A stretch of DNA of 64,000 nucleotides from Saprospiraceae bacterium. GTDB taxonomy: Bacteria; Bacteroidota; Bacteroidia; Chitinophagales; Saprospiraceae. The notes under the pieces are model-generated. The model worked only from the letters and a program-made list of their open reading frames with translations, was not told the DNA's origin and did not search any database. Of the stretch, positions 322 to 62,501 are shown piece after piece. The DNA lies in assembly GCA_016720635.1 (NCBI GenBank), contig JADKKF010000014.1, forward strand, positions 20,988-84,987, given 5' to 3'. How positions within the stretch are numbered: position 1 is the first letter of the stretch; every line of letters starts with the position of its first letter. Made by a program: the position numbers and the translations under genes.

Positions 322-3300
322 ATGCATCAAAGAATTACGAATATTGCAGGATGGTTGGTTTTTTCCATTTCCCTTATTGTGTATTATTTTTCAGTAGAAA
401 GCACGGGCAGTCTTTGGGATTGCGGTGAATTTATTTTGGGTGCATACAAGCTCCAAGTAGTTCACCCACCTGGGGCCCCTTTGTTTTTATTGGTAGGAAG
501 ATTGTTTGCATGGGTTGGCTCTTGGGGTGGAAATCCTGAAAGCATAGCAGTAGCGGTGAATATGTTGTCAGCCATCTGCACATCATTCGCAGCCATGTTT
601 GTGTGTTGGACGACTATGATGCTTGGAAAATTGACTTTTTTGGATAGAGAAACAGAGCCATCTACAAGTGATTCTTATGCATTGGGAGGAGCGGGTTTGG
701 TAGCTGGATTGACAGCAGCATTTTGTACCTCTGTTTGGTTTTCGGCTGTGGAGGGAGAGGTTTATGCGATGTCATCGATGTTTACTTGTATGACGATATG
801 GGCAATGCTCAAATGGTATTATCTACCAGATGAACCAGAAAATGATCGATGGATTCTGTTTGCTATTTTTTCAACGGGTCTATCTATCGGTGTTCACTTA
901 TTATCTCTCTTGACGTTTCCAGCCTTGGCGATGTTTTATTATTTTAAAAAATACAAAGAGCATACGGTTAAAGGTACATTTTTTGCTTCTATGGTAGGAG
1001 TTTTGTTCCTGGGTTTGACGCAAGCGCTTATCATCAATGGGATTCCGAAACTATGGGGAAATATAGATTACTTGTTTGTGAATAGCTTTGGACTTCCTGT
1101 TAATTCTGGTATAGTGCTTGTACTTTTGATTTTGGGCGGAATCTTATACTATGGATTTAACTACGCAAAAAAACATTCATATCCTGTCATCCAAAATATA
1201 TTTATAGGTGCTTATCTTTTGATCATAGGATTTTCTACTTATGGTATGGTGGTCATCAGAGCCAATGTGGACACCCCAATCAATATGAACAAGCCTGATA
1301 ACCCGATGAAGCTCATTCCTTATTTGAATCGCGAGCAATACGGAGAAAATAAATTGTTGCGTGGGCCATACTTCGATGCAAGGCCTGTGGACATGGTTAC
1401 AGAGCCTAGATATGATGTCGTCGATGGAAAATACAAAGAAGTAAGTCAAAAAATTGAATACGTTTACAAAAGTGATGATTTAGTGTTTTTCCCAAGGATG
1501 CCGCATGCGGATGAAATGAGAAAAAGGCTTTACAGAGATTTTTGGATGAATGGAAAGCAAGGAAAACCAAGCTTTTTGGACAATATGTCATTTTTCATCA
1601 GATACCAAATTGGTTGGATGTACTGGCGATATTTTATGTGGAATTTTACAGGGCGACAGAATGGAGAACAGGGATATTTCCCTTGGGATCCTGCCAATGG
1701 CCACTGGATTTCTGGCATCACTCCTTTGGACAATATGCGATTGTATAATCAGAGTGAGCTACCAGAATATTATAGAAATAATGAATCTAGAAATACGTAT
1801 TTCTTCATACCGTTTATTTTGGGTTTGATTGGTTTAATTTACCAAGCAAAAAGGCGTAGGGAAGAGTTTTTTGGGTTGTTGGCGCTGTTTATTATCACAG
1901 GTATAGGTATCATCGTTTATGCCAATTCTCCGCCCAATGAACCGAGAGAGAGGGACTACGTTTTGGTTGGATCTTTCTTTGTCTATGCCATGTGGATCGG
2001 GATGGCGGTTCTAGCTATTTATCAGTATTTCAAATCCAAAGTCAGTGGCACAGCCTTGGCCTTTGGTGCTAGTGCCATTTGTCTAGTAGCTCCATTGTTA
2101 ATGGGCTTCCAAAACTTTGATGATCTAGGACGTAGAGGACATTATGGATCTAGGGACTATGCCAATAACTTCTTACAATCTTGTGAAAAAAATGCCATCA
2201 TATTCACGTATGGTGACAACGATACCTATCCACTTTGGTATGCTCAAGAAGTAGAAGGAATAAGAAAAGATGTGCGTGTGGTGAACTTATCTTTGATCGC
2301 AGTAGATTGGTATATCAATGCCTTAAGAAATAAAATCAATGAGTCGGATCCGATCAAACTGACTATCCCAGCAAGTGCTTATGTGGGCAATGCAAGGGAT
2401 GCTGTGTATTTGGTTCCTAGAGAATAATAACAATGCAATGCCATTGTCCGCAGCTTTGAAATTCATAGGAGAGGACCACCCACTGCAAAGTGAAGGGGGC
2501 TCGGTTCCGTCATATCTGCCAGCCAAAAACTTGTTTATCGACATAGACCCGCAAAAGGCTCTGAAAGTTGGCATGGCTAAGCCAGGCGATACCATCGCAC
2601 CAAGATTGAATTATACCCTTCCAGGATCATATATTAGCAAGGATGATTTAGCCATTTTGGATGTTATAAGCTCCAATATGTACGAAAGACCGATTTATTT
2701 CTCAGTGACAGTACAACGCGATAAGTTGATGGGCTTGGACGATTATTTCCAATTAGAAGGTCTAGGCTTGAGACTTATGGCTGTAAAATCTACTTCAGAT
2801 CCTGATTTTGAAATTTACGGAAGTGGTAGAGTAGATGCCAATAAAGTCCTTGAAAATTTCTCCACCAAATTCAAATGGGGAGGTTTTGATAAAAAGAAAA
2901 TGTTCGTAGATAAGAGCTATAGCCCAAGCGTAAATGCGCATAAATTGGTTGCATTGCGTGCTACACAGGACTTTATTTTGTCCAATCAAAACGAGAAAGC
3001 TATCAAGCTGATGGATACCTATTTTACAGGTTTCCCTAATTTTAATTTTCCTTATGAGCAGTCCATGTTGTCTTTTATAAGGATGTATATTACAGCAGGG
3101 GCTTACGACAAAGCCAAAACACATATGGACATTATGGCCAAAATGGCGGTTCAAAACAATACGTTTTTTAATAGTTTGACATCAGCAGATTTGCAGACAT
3201 ATACGTTGAGGATGGAGTATGAACAAAACCAGAATATCATGTCCGAATTGATCAATTTGGCTGAGCTGGGCAAAGACAATGCTTATGCCGAAGATCTTAA

Positions 3301-3361
3301 GAAAATGTTTGGAAATAACATCAAGCCAAAACAAAACCAACAGGGACCATTGTTAAATTAA
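322..3361 (+). pseudogene. DUF2723 (TMEM260-like) polytopic membrane protein, split into ORFs 259..2427 and 2375..3361 by an apparent 1-nt frameshift
   Basis: The N-terminal motif GSLWDCGEFILGAYKLQVVHPPGAPLF and many hydrophobic segments are typical of DUF2723. The 328-aa ORF continues in the adjacent frame with a 53-nt overlap. The combined length of about 1010 aa fits the family. The likely true start is ATG 322 (MHQRITNIAGW). Confidence 0.7.
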
Positions 3362-3376
3362 TAAAAACTGTATGGT

Positions 3377-3823
3377 ATGAAAGCTCAATGGATAATGATA
3401 GGGAATGACCATGCTGGTACACTCCTGAAAGATAAGATTAAGAAAAAGCTGATCGAAAAAGGTTATCTTTTGATGGATTTTGGTGCGTTTACAGAAGATT
3501 CTGTGGATTACCCAGACTTTGCTCACGCCGTCGCTGATGCTATGAAAGATAAGCCTGAAAGTCTTGGCATATTGATTTGTGGTAGTGGAAATGGCATGGC
3601 GATTTCAGCCAACAAGCATAAACATATCAGAGCAGGTATTGCTTGGAATAGCGACGTTGCTAGTCTTATACGGAGACATAACGATGCCAATATATTGGTA
3701 TTGCCCGCGCGGTTCATTCAGGATGAAAAAGCCATTGGGTGTGTTGAAAAATTTTTGGAAGCATCGTTTGAAGGTGGGAGACATAGCTTGAGGGTCAATA
3801 AGATTTGGCCCAGTATGTGTTGA
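3377..3823 (+). CDS. rpiB: ribose-5-phosphate isomerase B (RpiB/LacA/LacB family)
   Basis: 148 aa. The GNDHAG, ICGSGNGMAISANK and RRHNDANILVLPARF motifs are characteristic of RpiB. Confidence 0.9.
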   Translation: MKAQWIMIGNDHAGTLLKDKIKKKLIEKGYLLMDFGAFTEDSVDYPDFAHAVADAMKDKPESLGILICGSGNGMAISANKHKHIRAGIAWNSDVASLIRRHNDANILVLPARFIQDEKAIGCVEKFLEASFEGGRHSLRVNKIWPSMC

Positions 3824-3912
3824 TTTTCTTAGTATGGGTATGATATTTTTATTGAATATAATATATTAAGATTATCAAAAAAATAAATGGAAATATCACT
3901 AGAATAAGCAAG

Positions 3913-5394
3913 ATGGGTGCCAAAGCCTCGTTGCTTTTAGTAATTTCCTTTTTCACGATTTCTAAATGGGCCAATGCTCAGTCGGCTTATTTAGATGGAG
4001 ATTCTGTTATGATATCAAAACTCCAAGATCAAATATCAAAAATAGAATTGCTGGAGCATTTGAAGATACTGGCATCAGATACCATGGAAGGTAGGGGGAC
4101 GGGTAAAAGAGGAAACCAATTGGCCGCAAATTATCTTTCCCAAAAGTTATCAGAAGCAGGCTTCAAACCACTAGACTCCGATACCAGCTTTTTACAACCC
4201 TTCGAATTTTTGAGCGACGACTGGATATTACAAGAGTTTAGGATTGGAGATTTAAAACTTACTATAGATCAGGATTACGTCATCGTCCCTTGGCATTCGT
4301 TTTCAGCAGGAACTTTTTATGCCAAATCCATTTTGTTGGTTCATGACCATGCGATTAAGAAATTGGACTGGAAGGATTTAAAAGCTACTTTAATCATCAT
4401 TTATGGGCAAAAGGAAAATGTCTCAGGAAGGTGGTTGGAGGATGTGGCCAAGAAAAATCTCGTTTTATTTGTAAATGATGATTTTCATATGACTCATGAT
4501 GTCGTCAATGGTCAACCCTTTTATCTGAATGGCAATCCTCTTTACAAGAATTACGCATATATCAAGAGTGAAAAACTAAATGCTTGGATTTTAAACCAAA
4601 AGAAGAAAGATTTTGAACAGTTTTTACAAGGTCATATTGAAAGCATCAAAATATCTAGACTCGTATTTTTTAGGAATAGAAAAGAAGTTAAGCCCATAAA
4701 AACCGCTAACGTTGTCGGTTATATCGACAATAAAGACTCTACACAAAATAGTAGCAAAAAATACATGGTGTTATCGGGTCATTTTGACCATCTGGGTAAG
4801 AAAGGCAATTCTATCTACTATGGTGCCGATGACAATGGATCTGGATGTTCTGCAATCGTAGCTATGGCCAAATATTTGGGAGAATTGGCTAAAAATAACG
4901 CACTGAATAAAAGAATAATCGTTGCATTTATGACAGGGGAGGAGATGGGGCTCATCGGGTCACATTACTTCACGGCCACAGATTTTTTTAAAAAAAATAA
5001 ATTTGAATGCAATGTAAATATCGATATGATAGGTCGATTTGATAAAAACCATCAAGAAAGTAAAAATCCATATATTTATGTGATAGGTGCTGATCGCATT
5101 TCTAAAGATTTAGATTCAGTGATCTCCAAAACAAATGTTAGATATAATCACTTGGATTTGGACTATCGGCTGAATGCCTTAGATGATCCAGAGCGATTGT
5201 ACGAGCGATCGGACCATTTTAATTTTGCAAAAAATGGAATTCCTTCAGTTTTCTTTTTTAGTGGATTGCATGAAGACTACCACAAAACCAGCGATACTTT
5301 TGATAAATTAAATTATCAATTGTTTCACCAAAGAACCAAGTTTTTGTTTACAGTCGTAAGCGAGTTGGCGGTAAGGAAAACGCCCTTGAGATAA
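3913..5394 (+). CDS. secreted M28-family zinc aminopeptidase
   Basis: N-terminal signal peptide (LLLVISFFTISKWANAQ). M28 metal-ligand motifs are present: HFDHLG, YYGADDNGSG, TGEEMGLIGS, DMIG and SDHFNFAKNGIP. Confidence 0.85.
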   Translation: MGAKASLLLVISFFTISKWANAQSAYLDGDSVMISKLQDQISKIELLEHLKILASDTMEGRGTGKRGNQLAANYLSQKLSEAGFKPLDSDTSFLQPFEFLSDDWILQEFRIGDLKLTIDQDYVIVPWHSFSAGTFYAKSILLVHDHAIKKLDWKDLKATLIIIYGQKENVSGRWLEDVAKKNLVLFVNDDFHMTHDVVNGQPFYLNGNPLYKNYAYIKSEKLNAWILNQKKKDFEQFLQGHIESIKISRLVFFRNRKEVKPIKTANVVGYIDNKDSTQNSSKKYMVLSGHFDHLGKKGNSIYYGADDNGSGCSAIVAMAKYLGELAKNNALNKRIIVAFMTGEEMGLIGSHYFTATDFFKKNKFECNVNIDMIGRFDKNHQESKNPYIYVIGADRISKDLDSVISKTNVRYNHLDLDYRLNALDDPERLYERSDHFNFAKNGIPSVFFFSGLHEDYHKTSDTFDKLNYQLFHQRTKFLFTVVSELAVRKTPLR

Positions 5395-7598: not shown

Positions 7599-9434
7599 AT
7601 GAAATATTTACTAATTATTTGCCTTGGTTTTTGCTCATTTTGGGTGAAAGGACAAGTTTCAAATGATGAGTGTAGTGCTGCCATCATCTTGGATGATGTG
7701 AATAATTATTGTTCTGGTGTAGGTCAATTCAATAATATAGGTGCTACCCCCTCGACAGTCAATCAAGTTGGTGGAGGAATATTTTGTTGGTCTGATGCGA
7801 ACAATGATGTCTGGTTTCAATTTGTGGCCACTGCTACCGATATCAATGTTAGGGTCATTGGCGATATAGCCCAAACACCTGGAGGAACGATTAAATATCC
7901 ACAATTTGCCGTATATTCTGGAAGATGCGCAACGGGATTGACTATGGTCTCTTGCAATTCTGACCAAGCTGGTAGCCATGTCGCTGAGTCTTATGGCAAT
8001 AATCTCATCCCAGGCAGACAATATTATATTCGTGTAGGAGGACGAGGAAACAATACTGGAACGTTTACATTGTGTATAAATAATTTTTTTAATGTACCAG
8101 CCCCTCAGTCGGATTGTCCCCAAAATATTGTTTTATGTGATAAAGCTGGATTTTCCGTCAATTCATTGATTGGAACTGGATTAAACAATACGGAAGTCAG
8201 TACCAGTTGTATTGATGAAGAAAGAAGTTCTGCGTGGTACAGTTGGACATGCAAGGATCCAGGATCTCTCACTTTCACGATAACCCCAAGCAATCCGATC
8301 GACGACATCGATTTTGTGGTCTATGAATTGCCCAATGGGGTCAAAGACTGTACGGGGAAATTTGAACGTCGGTGTGAAGCCGCTGGAGAAAATATTGGAG
8401 CACCTCTAGCTACTTGGGAGCGATGTATGGGCCCCACAGGACTTTCTGACTCTGAGTCCGATACAAGTGAACCAGCTGGCTGTGGAGGCAATAATAATAA
8501 TTTTGTTTCGGCATTGAATATGGAAGCTGGGAAAAGCTATGCTATTTTAATCAATAACTATTCAAGAAGTGGAAATGGTTTTAATATCGCATTCGGCGGT
8601 ACGGGTACTTTTCTAGGACCAGAAGCAGATTTTGAGATTTTGGACGAATCCACGCCATTTTGTAGATTTCAAGAATACACGGTGGTTGATACTTCTAGAT
8701 TGTTTGGTACTAGAGTCATCTCCTACCAATGGGGGTTTGGCGATGAGGCGGTATTCTCAAGCGATACTGGTAGAGGGCCTCACAAGGTGACTTTTCCACT
8801 AGCTGGGATAAAAACCATTTTTTTATCTCTAGAAACCGAGGATGGGTGTAGAGTGTATAAAAAACTCAGTATAGATGTTCTCTGTTGCGATAAAAGCGTC
8901 ATCGTGGATGCTGGACCAGATCAAACCATAAAACTCGGAGAATCTACTCAATTAAGCGGTTTTGCTTCATTACCAGGTCAAGATTGGATCATCCGATGGC
9001 TGCCAGGGGATCACTTGTCTTGTATCAACTGTTGGGATCCTATAGCGATGCCGTACCACGATTTTATGTATATTCTTACTGTTCAAGATGACGAACAATG
9101 TTCGGGGCGAGATACGGTGTTAATCAGGATAAATAAATATAAACCGTTATATATACCCAATGCTTTTTCGCCTAATGGCGATGGCATCAATGACAGATTC
9201 AATGCTTATGCAGGTATTGCGTTGAAGCAAATCAGAAAATTGCGAATATTTGACCGATGGGGAGATCTAGTGTATGAAACTTCCAATATCCAGCCTGGAG
9301 AAAATTTACTGGGATGGGATGGAAAATTTCAAGGAAAAGAAATGAACCCTGGAGTATTCGTATATCATATCGTTGCCGAGTTTTTGGATGACAGCCTCGA
9401 AGAATATGCAGGAGCACTCCATTTGATAAGGTAA
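7599..9434 (+). CDS. secreted protein with PKD-like domain and T9SS type B C-terminal sorting domain
   Basis: Signal peptide MKYLLIICLGFCSFWVKGQ. PKD-like stretch YQWGFGDEAVFSSDTGRGPHKVTF. The C-terminal YIPNAFSPNGDGINDRFNAY ... FDRWGDLVY is the gliding-motility-associated (CHU_C / type B) CTD signature. The ORF-track start at 7593 is a TTG, and ATG 7599 is more likely. Confidence 0.8.
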   Translation: MKYLLIICLGFCSFWVKGQVSNDECSAAIILDDVNNYCSGVGQFNNIGATPSTVNQVGGGIFCWSDANNDVWFQFVATATDINVRVIGDIAQTPGGTIKYPQFAVYSGRCATGLTMVSCNSDQAGSHVAESYGNNLIPGRQYYIRVGGRGNNTGTFTLCINNFFNVPAPQSDCPQNIVLCDKAGFSVNSLIGTGLNNTEVSTSCIDEERSSAWYSWTCKDPGSLTFTITPSNPIDDIDFVVYELPNGVKDCTGKFERRCEAAGENIGAPLATWERCMGPTGLSDSESDTSEPAGCGGNNNNFVSALNMEAGKSYAILINNYSRSGNGFNIAFGGTGTFLGPEADFEILDESTPFCRFQEYTVVDTSRLFGTRVISYQWGFGDEAVFSSDTGRGPHKVTFPLAGIKTIFLSLETEDGCRVYKKLSIDVLCCDKSVIVDAGPDQTIKLGESTQLSGFASLPGQDWIIRWLPGDHLSCINCWDPIAMPYHDFMYILTVQDDEQCSGRDTVLIRINKYKPLYIPNAFSPNGDGINDRFNAYAGIALKQIRKLRIFDRWGDLVYETSNIQPGENLLGWDGKFQGKEMNPGVFVYHIVAEFLDDSLEEYAGALHLIR

Positions 9435-49569: not shown

Positions 49570-52500
49570 CTATTCTACTAACGTTACGTCTCCTGTCTTT
49601 TTAATTATGCTTCCATCTAACAAGGTAATTTCCGTCGAATAAACAAAAACTGCGGGCTTCATAAGCAGCAACTTAAATGTGCCATTCCATCCTTTTTGAG
49701 TTCCATTTATCGTGAAATCTTTTTCCTCGTGAACCATATTGCCCCATCTATCAAATATTCTCAAATAATTAACTTTTTCAATTTTTAAGTCATCAGAATA
49801 AATTCTGAATACATCATTAATACCGTCCCCATTCGGTGAAAAAGCATTGGGTATATAAATTTTGATATTCTTTTTAACGATGACATTTACAAGATCTTCT
49901 GATGTACAACCCATCAAATCCGTTACACGAACTCGATAAGTCCCTGATATTTTTGGTGTGTCAATCAAAATGTCAGAATTATTGTTGAAAATTTTAGGTC
50001 CACTTGACCAATTCCATTGGGATATTTGGCTGGTTGGTTTATTAGTTATAGCAATCAATTGTACGCTTTCTCCTAATTCAATTTCAACTAAATCTGGCAA
50101 ATCAACAGTTAACCCTGAGACGGAATCAAAAACAACGGTATCTCTAATTTGACATCCCCGCTCGTCTTGTATAGTTAAGATATGTGTTCCAGGACTTAAA
50201 TTATTCAGCGATAGGCTTCCATTAAAATTCGTAAATGGTTGACCAGCGGGAAAGGAATATTTGTATGGTGGCGTTCCGTTCGTAATCGATGTAACACGGA
50301 TTGTTCCAGTCCTAGTAAGACAAGTGATTGAATCTATATTAATATTGAAATTGATTGGTAGCGGCGCAATTAAAGAAATTGAATCAACTACTTTACAGCC
50401 AATACCATCAGTTACAGTATATCGATATGTTCCTTGACTAAGATTATTTAAAGAAGTGGAATTTTGTCCATTTGACCAATTGACATTAACAGTTCCAATA
50501 CCTTGATTGACTGTTAGTTCTACTTTGCCATCACTTAAGCCAAAACAACTTATCGGACTTGAAATGCGAGAAGATGCATTCAAAGCGCAAGCTGAGTTTG
50601 TTATTGAAAAACCACAATTAGCACTACAGTTATTACCATCTCGGACAACGACAGAATAAACTCCAGAAACTAATCCATTTACAGAATTTTCGCCCAAAAC
50701 TCCAGGTTGTTGCCCAGATGATGGACCGACCCAAAGAATCGTATATGGAGATGCGCCTCCACTAATGAAGACCGAACCTATTCCATCCGCATTTGCTCCT
50801 GATGATGCTGGAGATTTTTGCAAGCAATTCAAAGAAACGCCTGGACTAGCAACAAGGATGAAAGACGAAGCAGAACTGCAACCTGCCGCAATGTCGGTGA
50901 CAGTTACGGAATAAGTCCCAGCAGATAAACTATTGGGATTTGCTCCTGAAGGATTTCCAAGTCCTTGCCAAGTATATGAATAACCCACGCCACTCGGTGT
51001 TACAGATATGCCTCCATTATTGAGTCCACAACTTGGATTGGATAAGCTTCCTGAAACATTAAGACCTTGACTGGCTGTAAGAACGAAAGACGAAACAGAA
51101 CTACAACCAGCTGCAATGTTGGTGACAGTTACGGTATAAGTTCCAGCAGATAAGCTGGTAGGATTTGCTCCTGAAGGATTTCCAAGTCCTTGCCATGTAT
51201 ATGAGTAACCTACGCCATTCGGTGTTACAGATATACTTCCATTATTGAGTCCACAGCTTGGATTGATTCCATTTAAGGAAATAGATAAATTTGTTGACCC
51301 GTTTATTGTAAATCCAGTTGAAGCAGAACATCCACCAACCGTATTTGTAACGGTAACGACATAATTTCCGGGTGCAAGGTTTGTTCTTATAGAAGAACTA
51401 AGTCCAATATCACCCCAATTATAGGTAAACCCAGCCCCAGCAGGAGTAACAGTAATGGCCCCATTGTCTTGCCCACAGCTGGTTTGGGTGATATTGGCAC
51501 CAGCGGTTAACCCAGAAGAAGCATTTAAAGTAAAGCTAGAAGAAGTCCTACATCCAGTCGCAGTCTCAGTCACGGTGACAGTATAGGTACCAGCCCCTAA
51601 ATTCATAGGATTATTTCCTGAAAGAGCAGCATTAGACCATGCGTAAGAATAACCAGGAGGAGCAGGGTTGATTTCAATAGCACCGTTGTTCAAACCACAA
51701 CTTGGTTGGCTGACAATAGGATTCAAGACCAAAGCACCAGTACTAGTAATAGTAAAAATAGAACTGGATTTGCACCCAGTCGCAGTTTCTGTGACGGTGA
51801 CCGTATAATCACCAGCTCCAAGACCTGTTCTGATATTGGTAATGACACCCGATCCAGCCCAAGCATAAGAATAACCTGGAGGAGTAGGAGTAACAGAAAT
51901 AGCCCCGTTGTTATTTCCACAGCTTGCTTGGGTAATATTACCTCCGATGGCAAAAGGAGTGGATGGGTTGATTGTTATTGTTGTGGTTGATTTGCAACCA
52001 GAAGCTGTCTGAGTAACCGTAACGGTATAATCACCGGCAGCTAAGCCAGTTCTTATGTTGGTAGTAATACCCGACCCAGCCCAAGCATAAGAATAACCTG
52101 GAGGAGCAGGAGTAACCGAAATGGCCCCATTGTCTTGTCCACAGCTGGTTTGAGAGACATTTGAACCGACGGAAAATGGCGTTGATCCATTGATCGTGAT
52201 GCTTGTGGATGAAGCACATCCACCAACCGTATTTGTAACGGTAACGACATAATTTCCAGGAGAGAGGTTTGTTCTAATAGAAGAACTAAGTCCAATATCA
52301 CCCCAATTATAGGTAAACCCAGCCCCTGTAGGAGTAACAGTAATGGCCCCATTGTCTTGCCCACAGCTGGTTTGGGTGATATTCGCACCAGCGGTTAATC
52401 CTGCAGAAGCATTTAAAGTAAAGCTAGAAGAAGCCCGACATCCAGTCGCGGTTTCGGTAACGGTGACAGTAAATGTACCAGCCCCTAAATTCATAGGATT

Positions 52501-55500
52501 ATTTCCTGAAAGAGCAGCATTAGACCATGCGTAAGTATAACCTGGAGGAGGAGGATTGATTTCAATGGCACCATTGTTCAAACCACAACTTGGTTGGCTG
52601 ACAATAGGATTCAAGACCAAAGCACCAGTACTAGTAATAGTAAAAATAGAACTGGATTTGCACCCAGTCGCAGATTCTGTGACGGTGACCGTATAATCAC
52701 CAGCTCCAAGACCTGTTCTGATATTGGTAATGACACCCGATCCAGCCCAAGCATAAGAATAACCAGGAGGAACCGGAATAACTGAAACGGCTCCGTTGTT
52801 ATTTCCACAGCTTGCTTGGGTAATATTACCACCGATGGCAAAAGGAGTGGATGGGTTGATTGTTATTGATGTGGTTGATTTGCAACCAGAAGCTGTCTGA
52901 GTAACCGTAACGGTATAATCACCGGCAGCTAAGCCAGTTCTTATATTGGTAGTAATACCCGACCCAGCCCAAGCATAAGAATAACCTGGAGGAGCAGGAG
53001 TAACCGAAATGGCCCCATTGTCTTGTCCACAGCTGGTTTGAGAGACATTTGAACCGACGGAAAATGGCGTTGATCCATTGATCGTGATGCTTGTGGATGA
53101 AGCACATCCACCAACCGTATTTGTAACGGTAACGACATAATTTCCAGGAGAGAGGTTTGTTCTAATAGAAGAACTAAGTCCAATATCACCCCAATTATAG
53201 GTAAACCCAGCCCCTGTAGGAGTAACAGTAATGGCCCCATTGTCTTGCCCACAGCTGGTTTGGGTGATATTCGCACCAGCGGTTAATCCTGCAGAAGCAT
53301 TTAAAGTAAAGCTAGAAGAAGCCCGACATCCAGTCGCGGTTTCGGTAACGGTGACAGTATAGGTACCAGCCCCTAAATTCATAGGATTATTTCCTGAAAG
53401 AGCAGCATTAGACCATGCGTAAGTATAACCTGGAGGAGGAGGATTGATTTCAATGGCACCATTGTTCAAACCACAACTTGGTTGGCTGACAATAGGATTC
53501 AAGACCAAAGCACCAGTACTAGTAATAGTAAAAATAGAACTGGATTTGCACCCAGTCGCAGTTTCTGTGACGGTGACTGTATAATCACCAGCCCCAAGGT
53601 TTGTTCTGATATTGGTAATAACACCTGATCCAGCCCAAGCATAAGAATAACCAGAAGGAGCAGGAGTAACCGAAATGGCTCCGTTGTTATTTCCACAGCT
53701 TGCTTGGGTAATATTACCTCCAATGGCAAAAGGAGTGGAAGGGTTGATGGTTATTGATGCGGTTGATTTGCAACCAGAAGCTGTCTGAGTAACCGTAACG
53801 GTATAATCACCAGCAGCTAAGCCAGTTCTTATGTTGGTAGTAATACCCGATCCAGCCCAAGCATAAGAATAACCAGGAGGAGCCGGAGTAACGGAAATGG
53901 CCCCATTGTCTTGTCCACAGCTTGTTTGAGAGACATTTGAACCGACGGAAAATGGCGTTGATCCATTGATCGTGATGCTTGTGGATGAAGCACATCCACC
54001 AACCGTATTTGTAACGGTAACGACATAATTTCCAGGAGAGAGGTTTGTTCTAATAGAAGAACTAAGTCCAATATCACCCCAATTATAGGTAAACCCAGCC
54101 CCAGCAGGAGTAACAGTTATGGCTCCATTGTCTTGCCCACAACTGGTTTGGGTGATATTAGCACCAGCGGTTAATCCCGCAGAAGCATTTAAAGTAAAGC
54201 TAGAAGAAGTCCGACATCCAGTGGCGGTCTCAGTCACGGTGACAGTAAATGTTCCAGCCCCTAAATTCATAGGATTATTTCCTGAAAGAGCAGCATTAGA
54301 CCAAGCATAAGTATAACCAGGAGGTGGAGGGTTGATTTCAATGGCACCGTTGTTCAAACCACAACTTGGTTGGCTGACAGTTGGAGTCAATACTAGTGGA
54401 CTAGAAGGATTTATAGTAAAAATAGAACTGGATTTGCACCCAGTCGCAGTTTCAGTGACGGTGACCGTATAATCACCAGCCCCAAGGCTTGTTCTGATAT
54501 TGGTAATGACACCCGATCCAGCCCAAGCATAAGAATAACCAGGAGGAGCAGGAGTAACCGAAATGGCTCCGTTGTTATTTCCACAGCTTGCTTGGGTAAT
54601 ATTACCTCCAATGGCAAAAGGAGTGGAAGGGTTGATGGTTATTGATGCGGTTGATTTGCAACCAGAAGCTGTCTGAGTAACCGTAACGGTATAATCACCA
54701 GCAGCTAAGCCAGTTCTTATGTTGGTAGTAATACCCGATCCAGCCCAAGCGTAAGTATAACCTGGAGGAGCCGGAGTAACGGAAATGGCCCCATTGTCTT
54801 GTCCACAGCTTGTTTGAGAGACATTTGAACCAACGGAAAATGGCGTTGATCCATTGATCGTGATGCTTGTGGATGAAGCACATCCACCAACCGTATTTGT
54901 AACGGTAACAATATAATTACCAGAGGCAAGGTTTGTTCTAGTAGAAGAACTAAGTCCAATATCACCCCAATTATAGGTAAACCCAGCCCCAGCAGGAGTA
55001 ACAGTTATGGCTCCATTGTCTTGCCCACAACTGGTTTGGGTGATATTAGCACCAGCGGTTAATCCCGCAGAAGCATTTAAAGTAAAGCTAGAAGAAGTCC
55101 TACATCCAGTCGCAGTCTCAGTCACGGTGACAGTATAGGTACCAGCCCCTAAATTCATAGGATTATTTCCTGAAAGAGCAGCATTAGACCATGCGTAAGT
55201 ATAACCAGGAGGAGGAGGGTTGATTTCAATGGCACCGTTGTTCAAACCACAACTTGGTTGGCTGACAGTTGGAGTCAATACTAGTGGACTAGAAGGATTT
55301 ATAGTAAAAATGGAACTGGATTTGCAACCAGTCGCCGTTTCTGTGACGGTAACCGTATAAGATCCTGGAGACAAGCCTGTTCTAATATTAGTCATAACAC
55401 CCGACCCAGCCCAAGCATAAGAATAACCAGGAGGAAGAGGAGTAACAGAAATGGCCCCATTGTTATTTCCACAGCTTGCTTGGGTAATATTATCTCCAAT

Positions 55501-57666
55501 GGCAAAAGGAGTGGATGGGTTGATAGTTATTGATGCGGTTGATTTGCAACCAGAAGCTGTCTGAGTAACTGTAACGGTATAATCACCAGCAGCTAAGCCA
55601 GTTCTTATATTGGAAGTAATACCCGACCCAGCCCAAGCGTAAGTATAACCTGGAGGAGCAGGAGTAATCGAAATGGCCCCATTATCTTGTCCACAGCTTG
55701 TTTGAGAGACATTTGAACCAACGGAAAATGGCGTTGATCCATTGATCGTGATGCTTGTGGATGAAGCACATCCACCAACCGTATTTGTAACGGTAACAAT
55801 ATAATTACCAGAGGCAAGGTTTGTCCTTGTAGAGGAGCTAAGTCCAATATCGCCCCAATTGTAAGTAAATCCAGCCCCAGCAGGAGTAACAGTTATGGCC
55901 CCATTGTCTTGCCCACAGCTGGTTTGGGTGATATTGGTACCGGCGGTTAACCCAGAAGAAGCATTCAAAGTAAAGCTAGAAGAAGCCCGACATCCAGTCG
56001 CGGTTTCGGTGACGGTGACGGTAAATGTTCCAGCCCCTAAATTCATAGGATTATTTCCTGAAAGAGCAGCATTAGACCATGCGTAAGTATAACCAGGAGG
56101 AGGAGGATTGATTTCAATGGCACCATTGTTCAAACCACAGCTTGGTTGGCTGACAGTTGGAGTCAATACTAGTGGACTAGAAGGATTTATAGTAAAAATG
56201 GAACTGGATTTGCACCCAGTCGCAGTTTCTGTCACAGTAACCGTATAAGATCCTGGAGACAAACCCGTTCTAATATTAGTCGTAACACCCGACCCAGCCC
56301 AAGTATAGGTATAACCAGGAGGAGCCGGAGTAACCGAAATGGCCCCATTGTTATTTCCACAGCTTGCTTGGGTAATATTACCTCCAATGGCAAAAGGAGT
56401 GGATGGGTTGATAGTTATTGATGCGGTTGATATACAACCAGAGGCTGTTTGAGTAACTGTAACGGTATAATCACCAGCAGCTAAGCCAGTTCTTATATTG
56501 GTAGTAATACCCGACCCAGCCCAAGCATAGGTATAACCAGGAGGAAGAGGAGTAACAGAAATGGACCCATTGTCTTGTCCACAGCTTGTTTGAGTGACAT
56601 TTGAACCAACGGAAAATGGCGTTGATCCATTGATTGTGATGCTTGAGGTGGAAGCACATCCACCTACTGTATTTGTAACTGTAACGACATAATTTCCAGG
56701 AGAGAGGTTTGTCCTAGTAGAAGAACTAAGTCCAATATCTGACCAATTGTAATTGTAACTTGCCCCAGTAGGGGTGATTGAAATGGCCCCATTGTTATTT
56801 CCGCACATTGTTTGAGTGATATTCGCCCCAACCATTAATCCAGTTGAAGGATTTAATGTGAAACTAGAACTCGTTCGACACCCAGTCGTAGTTTCGGTAA
56901 CAGTGACAGTATAGGTACCAGCGCCTAAATTCATAGGGTTGTTTCCTGAAAGTGCAGCATTGGACCAAGCATAGGTATAATTAGGAGGAGCTGGATTTAC
57001 TAAAATGGCACCATTGTCCAATCCGCAGCTAGGTTGCGTTAATGTGGGACTTATATTGAATAAAGATGAAGGTGTTATGGTAAAAGTGGAACTCGATCTG
57101 CACCCAGTGGCTGTTTCTGTTACGGTAACTGTGTAAGATCCTGGAGACAAACCCGTTCTAGTATTAGTAGTAATACCCGACCCAGCCCAAGAATAAGTAT
57201 ATCCTGGTGGAGCTGGAGTGACCTCAATCGCCCCATTATTATTCCCACACGTTGTTTGAGTTATATTTCCACCAATAGCCAACGGTGTAGAAGAATTGAT
57301 GGTTACCGTTGCGGTTGACCTACAACCAGTGGCGGTTTGAGTAACAGTAACTGTATATGACCCTGGAGCTAATCCGGTTCTAGTATTTGTAGTGACCCCT
57401 GATCCAGCCCAAGCATAAGTATATCCTGGAGGGGCAGGAGTGACTGTAATAGCACCATTATTATTTCCACAACTTGTTTGAGTGACATTGGTAGCTGCAA
57501 CCAAGGAACAAGGGTTGCCATAATAATTTAAACAAATTTCATCCATACTAATTGTAGAAAATCGACAGAAAATGGGAATAGTGACCGTGTAGCATAATAC
57601 ATAATCTGCATTTGGAGTTAAATTTGTATATTCAGGATTGAACCGAATACTGGTCAGGTTGTACAT
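49570..57666 (-). CDS. giant cell-surface adhesin-like protein: about 30 SprB-type repeats, further Ig-like modules, and a T9SS type B C-terminal sorting domain; no signal peptide in the intact ORF
   Basis: 2698 aa. It carries about 74-aa modules built on (T/S)Q(T/P/A)SCG(N/Q/L)(N/D)NGAI.V.P ... Y.W ... G.Y.VTVT....GC. The C-terminal IYIPNAFSPNGDGINDVF ... FDRWGNMV is the type B CTD signature. Confidence 0.9.
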   Translation of the reverse strand: MYNLTSIRFNPEYTNLTPNADYVLCYTVTIPIFCRFSTISMDEICLNYYGNPCSLVAATNVTQTSCGNNNGAITVTPAPPGYTYAWAGSGVTTNTRTGLAPGSYTVTVTQTATGCRSTATVTINSSTPLAIGGNITQTTCGNNNGAIEVTPAPPGYTYSWAGSGITTNTRTGLSPGSYTVTVTETATGCRSSSTFTITPSSLFNISPTLTQPSCGLDNGAILVNPAPPNYTYAWSNAALSGNNPMNLGAGTYTVTVTETTTGCRTSSSFTLNPSTGLMVGANITQTMCGNNNGAISITPTGASYNYNWSDIGLSSSTRTNLSPGNYVVTVTNTVGGCASTSSITINGSTPFSVGSNVTQTSCGQDNGSISVTPLPPGYTYAWAGSGITTNIRTGLAAGDYTVTVTQTASGCISTASITINPSTPFAIGGNITQASCGNNNGAISVTPAPPGYTYTWAGSGVTTNIRTGLSPGSYTVTVTETATGCKSSSIFTINPSSPLVLTPTVSQPSCGLNNGAIEINPPPPGYTYAWSNAALSGNNPMNLGAGTFTVTVTETATGCRASSSFTLNASSGLTAGTNITQTSCGQDNGAITVTPAGAGFTYNWGDIGLSSSTRTNLASGNYIVTVTNTVGGCASSTSITINGSTPFSVGSNVSQTSCGQDNGAISITPAPPGYTYAWAGSGITSNIRTGLAAGDYTVTVTQTASGCKSTASITINPSTPFAIGDNITQASCGNNNGAISVTPLPPGYSYAWAGSGVMTNIRTGLSPGSYTVTVTETATGCKSSSIFTINPSSPLVLTPTVSQPSCGLNNGAIEINPPPPGYTYAWSNAALSGNNPMNLGAGTYTVTVTETATGCRTSSSFTLNASAGLTAGANITQTSCGQDNGAITVTPAGAGFTYNWGDIGLSSSTRTNLASGNYIVTVTNTVGGCASSTSITINGSTPFSVGSNVSQTSCGQDNGAISVTPAPPGYTYAWAGSGITTNIRTGLAAGDYTVTVTQTASGCKSTASITINPSTPFAIGGNITQASCGNNNGAISVTPAPPGYSYAWAGSGVITNIRTSLGAGDYTVTVTETATGCKSSSIFTINPSSPLVLTPTVSQPSCGLNNGAIEINPPPPGYTYAWSNAALSGNNPMNLGAGTFTVTVTETATGCRTSSSFTLNASAGLTAGANITQTSCGQDNGAITVTPAGAGFTYNWGDIGLSSSIRTNLSPGNYVVTVTNTVGGCASSTSITINGSTPFSVGSNVSQTSCGQDNGAISVTPAPPGYSYAWAGSGITTNIRTGLAAGDYTVTVTQTASGCKSTASITINPSTPFAIGGNITQASCGNNNGAISVTPAPSGYSYAWAGSGVITNIRTNLGAGDYTVTVTETATGCKSSSIFTITSTGALVLNPIVSQPSCGLNNGAIEINPPPPGYTYAWSNAALSGNNPMNLGAGTYTVTVTETATGCRASSSFTLNASAGLTAGANITQTSCGQDNGAITVTPTGAGFTYNWGDIGLSSSIRTNLSPGNYVVTVTNTVGGCASSTSITINGSTPFSVGSNVSQTSCGQDNGAISVTPAPPGYSYAWAGSGITTNIRTGLAAGDYTVTVTQTASGCKSTTSITINPSTPFAIGGNITQASCGNNNGAVSVIPVPPGYSYAWAGSGVITNIRTGLGAGDYTVTVTESATGCKSSSIFTITSTGALVLNPIVSQPSCGLNNGAIEINPPPPGYTYAWSNAALSGNNPMNLGAGTFTVTVTETATGCRASSSFTLNASAGLTAGANITQTSCGQDNGAITVTPTGAGFTYNWGDIGLSSSIRTNLSPGNYVVTVTNTVGGCASSTSITINGSTPFSVGSNVSQTSCGQDNGAISVTPAPPGYSYAWAGSGITTNIRTGLAAGDYTVTVTQTASGCKSTTTITINPSTPFAIGGNITQASCGNNNGAISVTPTPPGYSYAWAGSGVITNIRTGLGAGDYTVTVTETATGCKSSSIFTITSTGALVLNPIVSQPSCGLNNGAIEINPAPPGYSYAWSNAALSGNNPMNLGAGTYTVTVTETATGCRTSSSFTLNASSGLTAGANITQTSCGQDNGAITVTPAGAGFTYNWGDIGLSSSIRTNLAPGNYVVTVTNTVGGCSASTGFTINGSTNLSISLNGINPSCGLNNGSISVTPNGVGYSYTWQGLGNPSGANPTSLSAGTYTVTVTNIAAGCSSVSSFVLTASQGLNVSGSLSNPSCGLNNGGISVTPSGVGYSYTWQGLGNPSGANPNSLSAGTYSVTVTDIAAGCSSASSFILVASPGVSLNCLQKSPASSGANADGIGSVFISGGASPYTILWVGPSSGQQPGVLGENSVNGLVSGVYSVVVRDGNNCSANCGFSITNSACALNASSRISSPISCFGLSDGKVELTVNQGIGTVNVNWSNGQNSTSLNNLSQGTYRYTVTDGIGCKVVDSISLIAPLPINFNINIDSITCLTRTGTIRVTSITNGTPPYKYSFPAGQPFTNFNGSLSLNNLSPGTHILTIQDERGCQIRDTVVFDSVSGLTVDLPDLVEIELGESVQLIAITNKPTSQISQWNWSSGPKIFNNNSDILIDTPKISGTYRVRVTDLMGCTSEDLVNVIVKKNIKIYIPNAFSPNGDGINDVFRIYSDDLKIEKVNYLRIFDRWGNMVHEEKDFTINGTQKGWNGTFKLLLMKPAVFVYSTEITLLDGSIIKKTGDVTLVE
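51300..57510 (-). repeat. higher-order tandem repeat, 7 copies of an 888-bp (296-aa, four-module) unit inside the adhesin gene
   Basis: Identical strings recur at exactly 888-nt spacing, for example the block starting near 51681, 52569 and 53457, and a variant block near 54345, 55233 and 56121. Spurious ORFs in the supplied track recur with the same period. Confidence 0.9.
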
Positions 57667-59686
57667 TTGTTTGAATGGGTGCTAAAGCTATGGGTGCTGC
57701 AGCATAATTGGATGCGGGTCTGAGCGACCAGGTAGGAGGAGTAGCATTAGCTCCTGGAGGCGATGAACTAGGCCTAATCCCCATTGAAAACCTAGAAATC
57801 CTGTTGCATCAGCTGTCGCGCGAAAACAGTTTGTGACCGAGGCTGGTCCATTTACTGGCACATGAGGGTTCCAGCAACTAGTAATAAGTTCTATCTTGAA
57901 GCATAAAATTGGGAGCCGAGCCCATCCCTGGACCAGCACATGGACTAGCGCACGTACCACATCCTCCAGGTGAGCAAGGCGCATAACTCAATCTATATGG
58001 TCCAGCAAAATCGATACACCCATCTCCGTTGGCATCGACATTGTTAGTGCCATTACAAGCCGTACCTTGTAATGCACATTCACAATCTATTGTGACAGGT
58101 ACAATCCAAACGTCAGATGCTCCTGAAACTAGACTGGATGAGAATCCCGAATTATTACCATCTGAAATGGTGGCTGAAGATGTGAATATCCCTCTAAAAC
58201 AAGGATTGGTAGTATTATATGTTGAGGCAAGGGATAGATTGGCGGCGGTTTGAGCGCAAGTAAAAATAGCATACCCTTTTTCAACACGCAATCCACAGCC
58301 AGGTGGAGGATTTGTTCCATCTCCATTCCATGTAATACTGACATCTTCACAACACGGTACTTGGTATGCTCCACCTACCAAGGGCGCACCAGTTACAGTA
58401 TATGTTCCTGCGTCAGCACCACATGTGGAGCCGCAATTTCCAGTCCCTCCAGTATCATCATACACCCATACATAATTATCAGCCAATGATCCACAACTAT
58501 TGCTGGTATAGGTTATTATTACACAAAATCGATAACTTGTATTGGGTGTTACAACATATTCATTTCCCGTTCCAAATGAAGAAGCTCCTGCTGAAGGTAC
58601 GACAGTGCTGCAATTGGATTGTAATAATCTATAGGTTCGGTAAAAAGCATAAAGGGGTTCCTCAGTCGATTGTATTTCCAATCGCATTTACGAACCCAAT
58701 CCTCGTTTCAGAAGGACCTGTTGTATAGTTCCAACATAGTGTATAATTTGTTCCAGTTGAAGTACTTAGGTCAGGTACAATGTCATATATCGCAGTTGGA
58801 CTCGCAGCACCATAATCAGCTTGAGCAGCAGCGGCATTGCAAAAATGTGCACCCCCGCAGTTAGGGAGTGCATATCTCGCAACCAGACGGAGAGGACTCC
58901 TAAGTTACCACGAACTGTTGAGGCAACCACGAGCAGAAGTCCGTATACATCTGACAAAAAATAAATGTAAGAGCCATCAGCTGTATTAGATGTAATGGTA
59001 GTAGGAGGAAATGTTCCTGTACAAAAAACGCCAATTTGATTGGATATTATAGGCAAATTACCCTGGTAAATTTGCAGTTGATCTAAGCAAGTCCCAAAAG
59101 TAGCTCTAATATCAAAAGAATTAAAAGTGACACTAACCTTGTCGCCTGGAGTAACTGGGCAAATAGTAGTTCCAGAAGAATTATTATTTGGATAATTTGA
59201 TGCTCCCCCAGGATCAGTAAAAGTTGTAGTAGCACAAGTAGTTTGAGTGATACCACCGATTACGATGGTACGGTTTAAGCACTCCCAAGCAGTCCCATTT
59301 GCATTGGTGGAGCAGGTGAAACTAGTCGGTAACCTAAGTTGTATGGATAGGTCATAGCATTGATCGGTATTCTACTGATTGGAAATCATGTCCATCCCAA
59401 AGGCTGTAGAGGGCCGTATTTGCCAGTCAAATCGTTCCGTTTGCAAAGTCCACAGAGAATGGGGCAAATCCATTCAGAGGATTAGCTCCATTTCACTGTT
59501 GATCCAAAATTGATCCAGCCTCAAGGATCTATTGGGCGACACCTCATACAAGCACATTCTTACTATCATTGTATATGTGCCATTCCCATTATTTATTATA
59601 ATGTAGCTAAATTTACAATCATCACATGCCTTTCCAAATTCTATAAATGTTAAAATGCAGAAAACTATTAAAAATAATTTTGCCAT
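57667..59686 (-). pseudogene. disrupted 5' head of the giant adhesin gene (signal peptide, CUB-like and Cys-rich segments in several frames)
   Basis: MAKLFLIVFCILTFIEFGKAC (start 59686) is a signal peptide. Coding-looking segments then alternate between frames, with an in-frame TAG at 59374..59372. The largest pieces are about 59371..58880 (CUB-like) and 58687..57878 (Cys/Gly/Thr-rich). Confidence 0.6.
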
Positions 59687-59786
59687 TCCTTTGTTGAAAT
59701 ATGACAATTTACTTGATATTTTTGGTATTGAAAATCTTGGAGCCATATGAGTGATTAATTAAAATTTAGGGAATTTGGGATTGATT

Positions 59787-59873: not shown

Positions 59874-62501
59874 TTATTGTTTCATAAATCTATGTGTTGA
59901 CTTCTCAGCGCTTTTTTCTCTTTCTATCAAAATGCTGTACATGCCTCTTGGTAAATCTCCAACCTCGATGTATCCATTTGAAGCTATCCCGCTGGTAATC
60001 TCTGTGCCTAATTGATTGAATATTTTGAATGTATATTCTGAATCAAGCGTTTCACCTGTCGAGTTTTTGATATAAAGCCTATCATTTACTGGATTTGGAT
60101 AGATTTTTATATTATCTGCCATTTTATTGCTGATGCTTATTATCGATGAAAAAGTATATTTTGCATCAATGTCAACCATTTTTAGTCTATAATAATATAG
60201 ATTGCTGGTTAAATTTTTGTGTATAAATTCATACTCAGCACCTTGAAATTCATTTCCGCTTTTAGCTTTTCGGTGCAGTGGTTCAAAATTTATACCGTCT
60301 TTGCTCACTAATAATTCAAAATGAGAAGCACGAACTTCTGATGAGGTTTTCCATCTAATTATATTGCTTTCGTTTTCCCTTTTTCCTACAAATGATACTA
60401 AATTTATTGGTAGAACTACTGAAGTTAAACCAGCATTGACAAATCCATAATGTAAAAAACTGTTGTTAGCATCTGTATTGTTCAAAACTGTTGTATTGGT
60501 ACTTGAACAAGATGGACAAATAGTAATGGGTCCTGAAAGCCCTGAGCTTATGCCAAAATCACTATCATTGGTCGTGTTGGAACCTGGATTGTTCTGAAAT
60601 GTCAAATATTGTCCAGATGGAGGAACAATTCTAATATAGTAAGTCGCGCCCGCATCTAATCCTGTAAATAAGTAAGAGCCGTTTGCTCCTGTTACCATAG
60701 TTGCTAAAACAGTCACGCCATCAGCAGCTAAAAGCTGAACTGTAACCCCCGCAAGCGAAGAATTTCCTGCACTATTGCCATCGGGTGTACTTGTATCATC
60801 AAATACAAATCCTCTGATGGATCCCTGATTTGTACAATTAACAATGGTAGCTGACGCTCCAGGACATGAGGTACAAGCTGTAACACCAGAGGTCACCCCT
60901 GTAAACCCAGGGCCAGTCCCTGCACTTGTGGTACTAGATGTTGCAGCTATGATATTGTTTGTCAGAGTTACATTGGTTAGCTCTACTGACGTACCATATA
61001 AGCAAGTAAAATTTGATTCATTGGTAGAAGTGCCAGCTGCAGAACTTGTAGCCACACTAAAAAGGTTATTATCTAAAACTGAATTAATAACATCAATGTC
61101 GCTAGTACTAAAACAAGCCCCATTGATCTTTAATGCACCAGCTCGAGCATTAGTATTGGAAGATGCCGATTTGTTACCAGTAAAAGTTACATTTTCAAAA
61201 TAGGCTTTTGTGACACCAGTTTGTGATCCACATGCCGTTGCATCCCTTCTGACGAAAACGGCGGATCCACCAGAGTTATTAGTAGTTGTTCCCCCACTAA
61301 AATTTCCCGAAAAGTAACTATTGACTACACTGATATTGTTAGATACGTCTGCATAAATGCCTCCTCCAAGCAATGCGCAGTTGTTGTAAAATTCTGTATT
61401 AGATATCGATAATAATGCGCCTTGAGTTGCTGCGTTATTTGAGTTTCCGACATAAATAGCACCTCCATATTGAGTGTCTTCAGAAGCAATCCAATCTGGA
61501 TTGTTGGTAGCTCTACCGTTATTACTGAATTTACAGCCAGTAAAATCTACTTTTGCCATATCGGTGATGGCTACTGCTCCTCCCCACCAAGTGGTTCCAC
61601 CTGAAGTGAAATTACAGGTAAAATTGGTGTTGGTGAATGTAACTTGTGCACTACCAGATAGTTCGATGGCTCCCCCATTACTAGAGTTTGCTTCATTTCC
61701 TGAAAAAGTACAGCCTACAAAATCCACATGTGCTCCCTGAACATCTGCTGCGCCACCGCCATCATTGCTGAAATTACAGGAGAAAGTGGTGTTGATTATG
61801 TTCAAATCACCAAGTGCAGACCCTGTAACATATAACGCACTAGAGGTAGGCGAACCCACAGTGGTTGGAGATACTGCTCCAGGATTGCTGTTTCTTATGA
61901 AATTACAACCTATAATGGTACCGGTGGTATTGGCTCCTACAGCCACTTTTACCGCATCGGTACCCCAGTTGCAATTGTCAAAGGTACAATTGCTGACCAC
62001 ATAACCTGAAGCCGTGCTTGGAATAGCTAGAGCACCACCACTAGGTACGCCTGCAAATCCTTTGAATGTAAAGCCAGTAAGGGTACTGTTTGAGGCCATA
62101 GTTGCGAAGCAAATAGCAGTCGTACCATTAGACGTATTGTCCAGAATAGCTCCGTTACCATTAACGACCATGCCTGATAGCAAATTATGTCCGCCATCCG
62201 CATCGCCCCAATCTGCATTTACTCCGATACCTCCAGATGCAGGTCCCATTTTGTAATAGCCTGGAGCGAAATTGATGGTGGTTACCCCGTTAGCCACTGC
62301 ATAGTTGTAAGCAGCTGTCCAGGTGGCAAATGGTGTCGCACCTGCAGTACTTGCAGCATTTGTGTTCATTTGGGCTACAGTCAAGCCAGCATAACACGAC
62401 AATGGCGCTATTTCAATACTTGATGCCGAAAAGGCATTTTGACTATAAAAAGAAAATAGGAGAGCAAAAACAAATAGAAATTTTGAAACGATTCTTTTCA
62501 T
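59874..62501 (-). CDS. secreted right-handed beta-helix (Pmp / pectate-lyase-like repeat) protein with SdrD-B/Cna-B-like domain and T9SS type A C-terminal sorting domain
   Basis: Signal peptide FLFVFALLFSFYSQNAFS. It has repeated GGA(I/L/V) ... N..F..N turns. The block GFVFDDTSTPDGNSAGNSSLAGVTVQLL ... GSYLFTGLDAGATYYIRI is SdrD-B-like. The C-terminus is IKIYPNPVNDRLYIKN ... LPRGMYSILIE. Confidence 0.8.
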   Translation of the reverse strand: MKRIVSKFLFVFALLFSFYSQNAFSASSIEIAPLSCYAGLTVAQMNTNAASTAGATPFATWTAAYNYAVANGVTTINFAPGYYKMGPASGGIGVNADWGDADGGHNLLSGMVVNGNGAILDNTSNGTTAICFATMASNSTLTGFTFKGFAGVPSGGALAIPSTASGYVVSNCTFDNCNWGTDAVKVAVGANTTGTIIGCNFIRNSNPGAVSPTTVGSPTSSALYVTGSALGDLNIINTTFSCNFSNDGGGAADVQGAHVDFVGCTFSGNEANSSNGGAIELSGSAQVTFTNTNFTCNFTSGGTTWWGGAVAITDMAKVDFTGCKFSNNGRATNNPDWIASEDTQYGGAIYVGNSNNAATQGALLSISNTEFYNNCALLGGGIYADVSNNISVVNSYFSGNFSGGTTTNNSGGSAVFVRRDATACGSQTGVTKAYFENVTFTGNKSASSNTNARAGALKINGACFSTSDIDVINSVLDNNLFSVATSSAAGTSTNESNFTCLYGTSVELTNVTLTNNIIAATSSTTSAGTGPGFTGVTSGVTACTSCPGASATIVNCTNQGSIRGFVFDDTSTPDGNSAGNSSLAGVTVQLLAADGVTVLATMVTGANGSYLFTGLDAGATYYIRIVPPSGQYLTFQNNPGSNTTNDSDFGISSGLSGPITICPSCSSTNTTVLNNTDANNSFLHYGFVNAGLTSVVLPINLVSFVGKRENESNIIRWKTSSEVRASHFELLVSKDGINFEPLHRKAKSGNEFQGAEYEFIHKNLTSNLYYYRLKMVDIDAKYTFSSIISISNKMADNIKIYPNPVNDRLYIKNSTGETLDSEYTFKIFNQLGTEITSGIASNGYIEVGDLPRGMYSILIEREKSAEKSTHRFMKQ

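Follow-up and report, generated by a model that had tools for sequence, protein, structure and literature searches.

The window analyzed here, a stretch of 64,000 nucleotides from contig JADKKF010000014.1 of a Saprospiraceae bacterium (assembly GCA_016720635.1; 3.43 Mb in 29 contigs, with a same-genus Saprospiraceae metagenome-assembled genome, or MAG, as its closest match), encodes on its reverse strand a giant putative surface adhesin of the type IX secretion system (T9SS). The body of this adhesin is an uninterrupted open reading frame (ORF) of 2698 codons (49570..57666, -), which comprises SprB repeats in 888-nt units (PF13573; several stretches, with E values of 2.6e-22 and 1.9e-15), a PKD-like domain, and a type-B T9SS C-terminal domain (CTD) of the CHU_C family (PF13585, E 2.7e-15). 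Some 2 kb upstream on the same strand, the ATG at 59686 (-) is the likely start of a signal peptide; it begins MAKLFLIVFCILTFIEFGKAC, its hydrophobic N-terminus having been judged by eye, and a second ATG lies further upstream at 59746 (MAPRFS...). The interval between position 59686 and the body ORF is filled with coding-like DNA that is scattered over several frames. As detailed below, this broken head is most likely a local sequencing or assembly artefact in one long-read MAG, and comparison with related sequences indicates that the locus probably constitutes one secreted giant adhesin gene of ~3,370 codons, extending from signal peptide to CHU_C.

Architecture of the adhesin locus as deposited

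The initial annotation, made from the window alone, had described a good signal peptide followed by a head so fragmented that it could be read only by switching frame repeatedly. A frameshift-aware protein-to-DNA alignment of an intact relative's head, which the same annotation had proposed, bears out this description nearly site for site. The alignment, computed by a dynamic programme, compared two intact heads, one from the same-genus genome G001 (L001:8921-) and one from a conspecific contig (L033:7544-), with window positions 59760-57300 (-). The outcome was identical for both: eight frame changes are needed, near 59493, 59372, 58897, 58866, 58670, 57883, 57785/57761, and 57661, and one in-frame TGA (59429-59427) is crossed. 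The coding-looking pieces quoted in the initial annotation are all present, and its CUB-like block is indeed a Pfam CUB domain (E 1e-6 in the window, 5e-9 in an intact copy) that also matches CUB domains in the PDB. The in-frame TAG that it listed at 59374-59372 exists as a codon but results from the loss of 1 nt that the intact copies retain, and does not represent a nonsense change in its own right; the in-frame stop on the path is the TGA. In the window as deposited, therefore, the signal peptide would have to cross eight frameshifts and a stop to be in frame with the CTD, and the inference that the 2698-aa product lacks a signal peptide holds for the deposited sequence, though probably not for the organism.

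Two properties of the broken interval are informative. The signal-peptide, CUB, 269-aa Cys-rich ORF, and 58-aa pieces share a single frame (coordinate mod 3 = 1), and the net length change of the first two garbled zones is 0 and -3 nt, respectively; the frame is therefore regained after each of these zones. Furthermore, all nine lesions fall within 2.1 kb of a 10.2-kb gene and none in its 8.1-kb body (binomial probability ~7e-7), whereas the remainder of the window averages approximately one frameshift in every 12 kb. The clustering originally estimated at about eight lesions in 2 kb, with none in the following 8.1 kb, is thus confirmed.

Intact copies in conspecific and same-genus genomes

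The adhesin gene adjoins an intact gene for an 875-aa protein with beta-helix, SdrD_B, and Por_Secre_tail domains (59874..62501, -), and an exact look-up of this neighbour protein served as the anchor for finding conspecific contigs. The protein was matched exactly in 16 contigs, which stem from other samples and were assembled by JGI, ENA, and Logan. The conspecific set used here (n = 12; JGI, ENA, Logan, and NCBI) consists of ten of these 16 (L030-L039), L005, and L040, the last being a MAG contig (GCA_016720325.1). The DNA identity of the neighbour gene to the window amounts to 99.0-99.7% for L005 and L030-L039 and to 98.3% for L040, versus 89.7% for G001 (JADKDE010000001.1), on the basis of which the twelve contigs are considered conspecific.

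Each of the twelve reads through the head without interruption from the signal-peptide ATG seen in the window, and the frame either reaches the edge of the contig or continues for 803 codons or more. The N-terminus of the window is likewise called in P0012, P0015, P0018, and L030-L040. One contig, L030 (8785-13899), contains the gene in full, as a single open frame of 1704 aa that runs from the signal-peptide ATG through CUB and the SprB repeats to the C-terminal CHU_C domain (E 6e-13); the frame of L040 is open for 2030 aa, and the contigs other than L030 end or break before the CTD. In G001, the head forms one 927-aa ORF that continues into the repeats. Arranged in order, the intact copies contain a signal peptide, an N-terminal part of ~110 aa, the CUB domain, a Cys-rich region of ~460 aa, SprB repeats, a PKD-like domain, and CHU_C. 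None of the nine lesions of the window (0/9) is present in any of the twelve conspecific contigs. Because the heads of the relatives are encoded in a single frame, the interval normally represents the head of one gene that requires no recoding. This outcome favors the continuous ORF of ~3370 codons that the initial annotation had entertained over its alternative that several independent small genes normally occupy the interval.

The total size of the adhesin differs among these sequences, from 1704 aa in the complete L030 to ~3,070 aa in L040 and ~3,370 aa in the window; either strains differ in how many 888-nt units they carry, or the repeats in L030 were collapsed during short-read assembly. 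The public copies also have glitches of their own: P0001 (L005:5529-8000) terminates in a second, out-of-frame reading of the first repeat, and among the ENA copies (P0016, P0018) one 4.5-kb contig is frameshifted inside the CUB block.

Error spectrum of the garbled patches

A multiple alignment of the head was assembled from the window, G001, and seven conspecific contigs, with six other sequences compared with the window across the patch segments. From 59880 to 58386, these six are almost invariant, and the window matches them at 98-100% identity outside three patches of 285, 113, and 25 nt, which hold the TGA and five of the eight frame changes. Read along the reverse strand, the gene start (59625..59746) is clean, with 98.4% identity to the conspecific contigs. 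It is followed by the first noisy patch (59340..59624), which includes the frame changes at ~59493 and ~59372, the TGA, and the TAG created by the 1-nt loss. The reading then becomes clean again over the CUB block (58976..59339; 98.9% identity), in which the CUB domain occupies ~59239-58949. A second noisy patch (58863..58975) requires, on the minimal path, frame changes at ~58897 and ~58866, and gives way to a gapless block of 98.4% identity (58671..58862; CGGAHFCNAAAAQADY...IGFVNAIGNT). The frame of this block in the window differs from that of the neighbouring pieces, and its motifs are kept in the distant homologues P0002-P0004. In the third patch (58646..58670), a change at ~58670 brings back the main frame, and the gapless block behind it (58386..58645; 98.8% identity) opens the Cys-rich region. 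Next come the variable, strain-specific part of the head (57540..58385) and the open body; where the body can be compared with the conspecific L040, the two are 90-100% identical and essentially gapless.

The composition of the differences within the patches is unlike that of natural divergence. Compared with L032, the patch 59624-59340 shows 218 matches, 50 mismatches (12 of them transitions), and 22 gap events, amounting to 72.7% identity, whereas merely 7 of its 293 columns vary among the six other sequences. The patch 58975-58863 has 13 mismatches and 13 gap events (8-13 indel events by nucleotide alignment), with 0 of 120 columns variable in the others, and the patch 58670-58646 has three mismatches and two gap events, with 0 of 27 columns variable. 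The transition-to-transversion ratio in the patches is ~0.3; the mismatched bases (T16/A16/C12/G6) are proportional to composition; and the differences are flat across codon positions, at 38/32/45 in the first patch and 13/14/18 in 58975-58863. Hypervariability of these regions was considered as a cause and ruled out by the invariance of the patches in all other sequences. Inspection by eye of the patch positions against 500-nt Racon windows revealed no pattern.

The mismatch-to-gap ratio is particularly discriminating. In the patches it ranges from 1:1 to 2.3:1, versus ~73:1 for the natural divergence between the window and G001 (2262 mismatches and 31 gap opens over 28 kb). Redundant small contigs of the same assembly compared with their large counterparts yield 587:185 (C3/C2), 191:126 (C6/C5), 443:202 (C25/C24), and 383:121 (C11/C13), that is, 1.5:1 to 3.2:1, and it is with these that the head patches group. 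Long ORFs cover 0.23-0.64 of the redundant small contigs versus 0.85-0.92 of the large ones. The small contigs C3, C6, C11, and C25, as well as C17-C23 and C27-C29, are indel-rich copies of large-contig regions (C3, for instance, is 94.8% identical to C2 over 17 kb with 185 gap openings) and have the appearance of alternative contigs that were poorly polished and remained in the bin.

Strain-specific variation in the head

Within the segment 58385-57540, all sequences vary, with 51-102 variable columns per segment among the sequences other than the window. Here the differences of the window's allele are biased toward the third codon position (14/12/53 in 58385-57900). Judging by this codon-position profile, the variable part is real divergence under selection and a true third allele. 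A search for an intact copy, with the read-through translation of the variable region as query, retrieved only the common-allele cluster at 68% identity. A second assembly with this strain's allele was found neither by this read-through search nor by looking up the 269-aa ORF of the window as an exact match among public assemblies, for which there was no record; scans of JGI metagenome contigs with peptide patterns and a 26-nt exact pattern found nothing. Three of the eight frame changes (near 57883, 57785, and 57661) lie in the variable part, of which the sequences found include no identical intact copy.

The C-terminal part of the head occurs in at least three allelic forms among conspecifics that share an identical neighbour protein, while the first 1.3 kb is nearly invariant. 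By head form, L031, L034, L039, and L005 group apart from L030, L032, L033, and L040. One head form is 97% identical to the head of G001, even though the neighbour gene of G001 is only 89.7% identical; these sequence relationships suggest that head segments have recombined across the species boundary.

Lesions elsewhere in this and sibling assemblies

To place the broken head in the context of its assembly, lesions were counted on the basis of ORFs and tblastn, given that megablast gaps over-count through paired compensating gaps in divergent intact genes. The assembly carries isolated frameshifts in otherwise conserved genes, mostly at homopolymers. The sibling MAGs are broken at other places. 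In L040, the beta-helix gene (728+144 aa) and a 507-aa gene (308+165 aa) are broken, and the adhesin head and a helicase gene are unbroken. In G001, genes encoding a TMEM260-like glycosyltransferase (19 lesions), an FtsW/RodA-family protein (8), IF-2 (3), and DnaB (1) are disrupted, all of which are intact in the genome studied here. Genes of this kind are normally essential, and the breaks in them are therefore hardly biological.

Single-base frameshifts in the window relative to G001 and L040 occur at 24874, 42217, 49328, and 19161, two of the four in runs of A or T. The genes affected encode an amidohydrolase-like protein (585 vs. 1005 aa), a GH31 glucosidase (626 vs. 796), a UvrD-like helicase, broken at its N-terminus (1014 vs. 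1041 in L040), and a porin-like protein, broken at its C-terminus. In G001, a 496-aa protein (12 lesions) and an SPFH/Band 7 protein (7), both intact in the present genome, are broken as well; the six broken genes of G001 lie on L006-L029, opposite window positions 1046-4317, 6527, and 8437-9385 and contigs C2/C8 of the host genome (G000).

Because the contig runs through 6 kb of near-identical 888-nt units in an array, long reads were probably used. The isolate name of G001 has the format used in PMC8012365, where the pipeline consisted of CANU with corMinCoverage=0, Racon with --include-unpolished, medaka, and finally Racon with Illumina reads. A pipeline of this type can leave stretches unpolished. 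Homopolymer indels are described in PMC9262707 as a known problem of R9-era Nanopore assemblies. The present locus resembles the residual indels of such MAGs in that its lesions are private and MAG-specific, homopolymer frameshifts occur elsewhere in the genome, and indel-rich patches coexist with noisy redundant contigs in the same bin. Unlike the usual Nanopore residue of single-base homopolymer indels, however, the three patches reach ~27% error including substitutions, which is far above a typical polished consensus and implies a local failure.

Origin of the broken head

Taken together, the privacy of the lesions, a spectrum that matches the assembly's own noise, the intactness of the conspecific copies, and the different private lesions borne by sibling MAGs argue for an artefact; the untouched 8.1-kb body makes random decay unlikely. 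A poorly assembled locality beside a long repeat, the first of three explanations offered by the initial annotation, accounts well for private lesions with an indel-rich, codon-blind spectrum alongside continuous conspecific copies. According to this reading, a low-quality consensus left in the long-read MAG would shatter the first ~2 kb of the gene, with three patches that carry noise of the kind found in raw reads (indel-rich, transversion-rich, and devoid of codon periodicity) set between blocks of 98-100% identity. The technical cause may have been low effective read support combined with locally failed polishing, or else a chimeric consensus of divergent alleles beside the tandem repeat, and the three lesions in the variable part would likewise be errors.

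Several observations weigh against an artefact. The 25-nt patch with clean flanks is a type of error that short-read polishing usually removes, and an error of ~27% is high even for a raw Nanopore consensus. No other site in this genome is so dense in lesions across the ~0.5 Mb for which a comparison with G001 was made, so that a special local cause must be assumed. The allele of the variable part is unique, and its three frameshifts have no identical intact comparator. The likeness to a known pipeline derives from the isolate name of G001 rather than from the record of this assembly, and the absence of the lesions from the molecules themselves is deduced from assembled sequences, not from reads.

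The main rival is a real, strain-private pseudogene, in which the head has been inactivated by frameshifts, minimally the three in the variable part, and no product is secreted. Strains commonly lose or vary their large surface adhesins, the deposited sequence itself reads this way, and the variable-part allele, real by its third-position bias, is found nowhere else, so its three indels are not demonstrable as errors. As in natural pseudogenes of surface proteins, the frame is broken by frameshifts and a stop, leaving a downstream ORF that, as deposited, is devoid of an export signal. Unlike such pseudogenes, the locus shows substitutions that do not far outnumber indels, and lesions that are neither spread along the gene nor common to close relatives: they are limited to 20% of the gene, with a clean 8.1-kb body (P ~7e-7), and six of the nine fall in patches without variation among all the other copies, the mismatch-to-gap ratio and flat codon profile of these patches matching assembly noise. 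Decay by point mutation could not produce patch flanks that remain 98-100% identical to functional alleles, nor does decay explain 27% divergence confined to a 285-nt patch between such flanks, and the frame is regained after each of the first two zones. A strain-private pseudogene is accordingly an unlikely explanation. The related proposal of an old N-terminal pseudogene fused to the repeat body is not supported, given the same near-identity of the blocks to functional alleles and the third-position bias of the variable part. That the lesions as a whole are real, such that one activated-sludge Saprospiraceae strain inactivated its adhesin by dense, patchy, indel-rich mutation limited to three short and otherwise invariant segments of the head, we regard as very improbable; were it true, it would represent a minor strain-level loss of one adhesin, and would imply a localized mutagenic or repair process not yet known, one that spared the flanks and the 8-kb body.

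As a subtype of artefact, the contig might instead be a chimeric consensus that alternates the common allele with a far more divergent one, contributed by the strain from which the long reads came, the frameshifts arising at or between the switches. Conspecific contigs whose neighbour genes are identical carry three or more head alleles, the alternation between identical blocks and divergent patches is sharp, and the net lengths of the patches are conserved, as such a chimera would predict. Yet the patches are invariant among all other alleles, the first patch alone contains two frame changes and a stop, the lack of codon periodicity excludes a clean piece of a functional divergent allele, and no such allele was present in the protein collections searched, all of which leaves chimerism a slim prospect. 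Biological recoding or targeted hypermutation, whether through programmed frameshifting or bypassing, a diversity-generating retroelement, or cassette gene conversion, deserves almost no credence. In its favor stands only that the changes in this surface protein cluster in short patches, whereas orthologues and conspecifics are single-frame and exhibit no conserved recoding signal; the unusual expression mechanism suggested by the initial annotation is not supported, the orthologues being read without recoding. Mutagenesis of the retroelement type was rejected because the mismatches are not adenine-specific and are accompanied by many indels. Searches of the genome by tblastn and blastn found no second copy, template repeat, or donor cassette of the head; a reverse transcriptase gene was not searched for.

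Implications for the interpretation of MAG loci

For the organism, the locus is best taken as a single unbroken adhesin gene that includes the signal peptide and spans ~3,400 aa, instead of a signal-less 2698-aa ORF accompanied by fragments. More generally, frameshift clusters in long-read MAGs can mimic pseudogenes or exotic modes of expression, notably beside long repeats, and call for caution. At this locus, noise and biology could nonetheless be told apart without reads by two cheap tests, the first being the use of an intact neighbour protein as an exact-match anchor for conspecific contigs. The second is provided by the mismatch-to-indel ratio and the codon-position profile, each set against the assembly's own noisy duplicate contigs.

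Domain content and relation to SprB-type adhesins

The closest known system is that of the SprB-type T9SS adhesins (type-B CTD/CHU_C class), typified by SprB of Flavobacterium johnsoniae, which the present gene resembles in its long SprB arrays and C-terminal CHU_C, in the N-terminal signal peptide of the intact copies, and in the presence in the genome of SprA and several PorP/SprF proteins. In contrast to SprB-type adhesins, the head at this locus is composed of CUB and a ~460-aa Cys-rich region that belongs to no Pfam family, and no PorP/SprF gene adjoins it in the window; a role in gliding or adhesion is putative here.

The Cys-rich region that follows CUB corresponds to residues 268-730 of the intact head (L040:10802-12190) and to window positions 58860-57540, and its comparison with Pfam yielded no family. 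An AlphaFold2 model of the module, built from a six-sequence alignment, attained a mean predicted local distance difference test (pLDDT) score of 49, too poor for a fold search, and was not used. The region is found again at approximately residues 24-470, just after the signal peptide, in P0005, P0101, P0132, and P0152, the first of which is annotated with PKD and CHU_C. It may therefore constitute an undescribed head module of T9SS surface proteins.

Elsewhere in the genome, the T9SS machinery is represented by an SprA_N match (PF14349, E 4e-150) at C2:399062-400624 and by PorP_SprF (PF11751) matches at ten places, equivalent to approximately eight gene copies. One of these copies (G000:C27:3623-4497) is crossed by 10 stop codons, on a contig with a long-ORF coverage of 38%; a comparison of C27 with G001 found no counterpart, rendering it unusable as a second test case. 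Another PorP/SprF copy, at G000:C4:316788-317740, is split in two.

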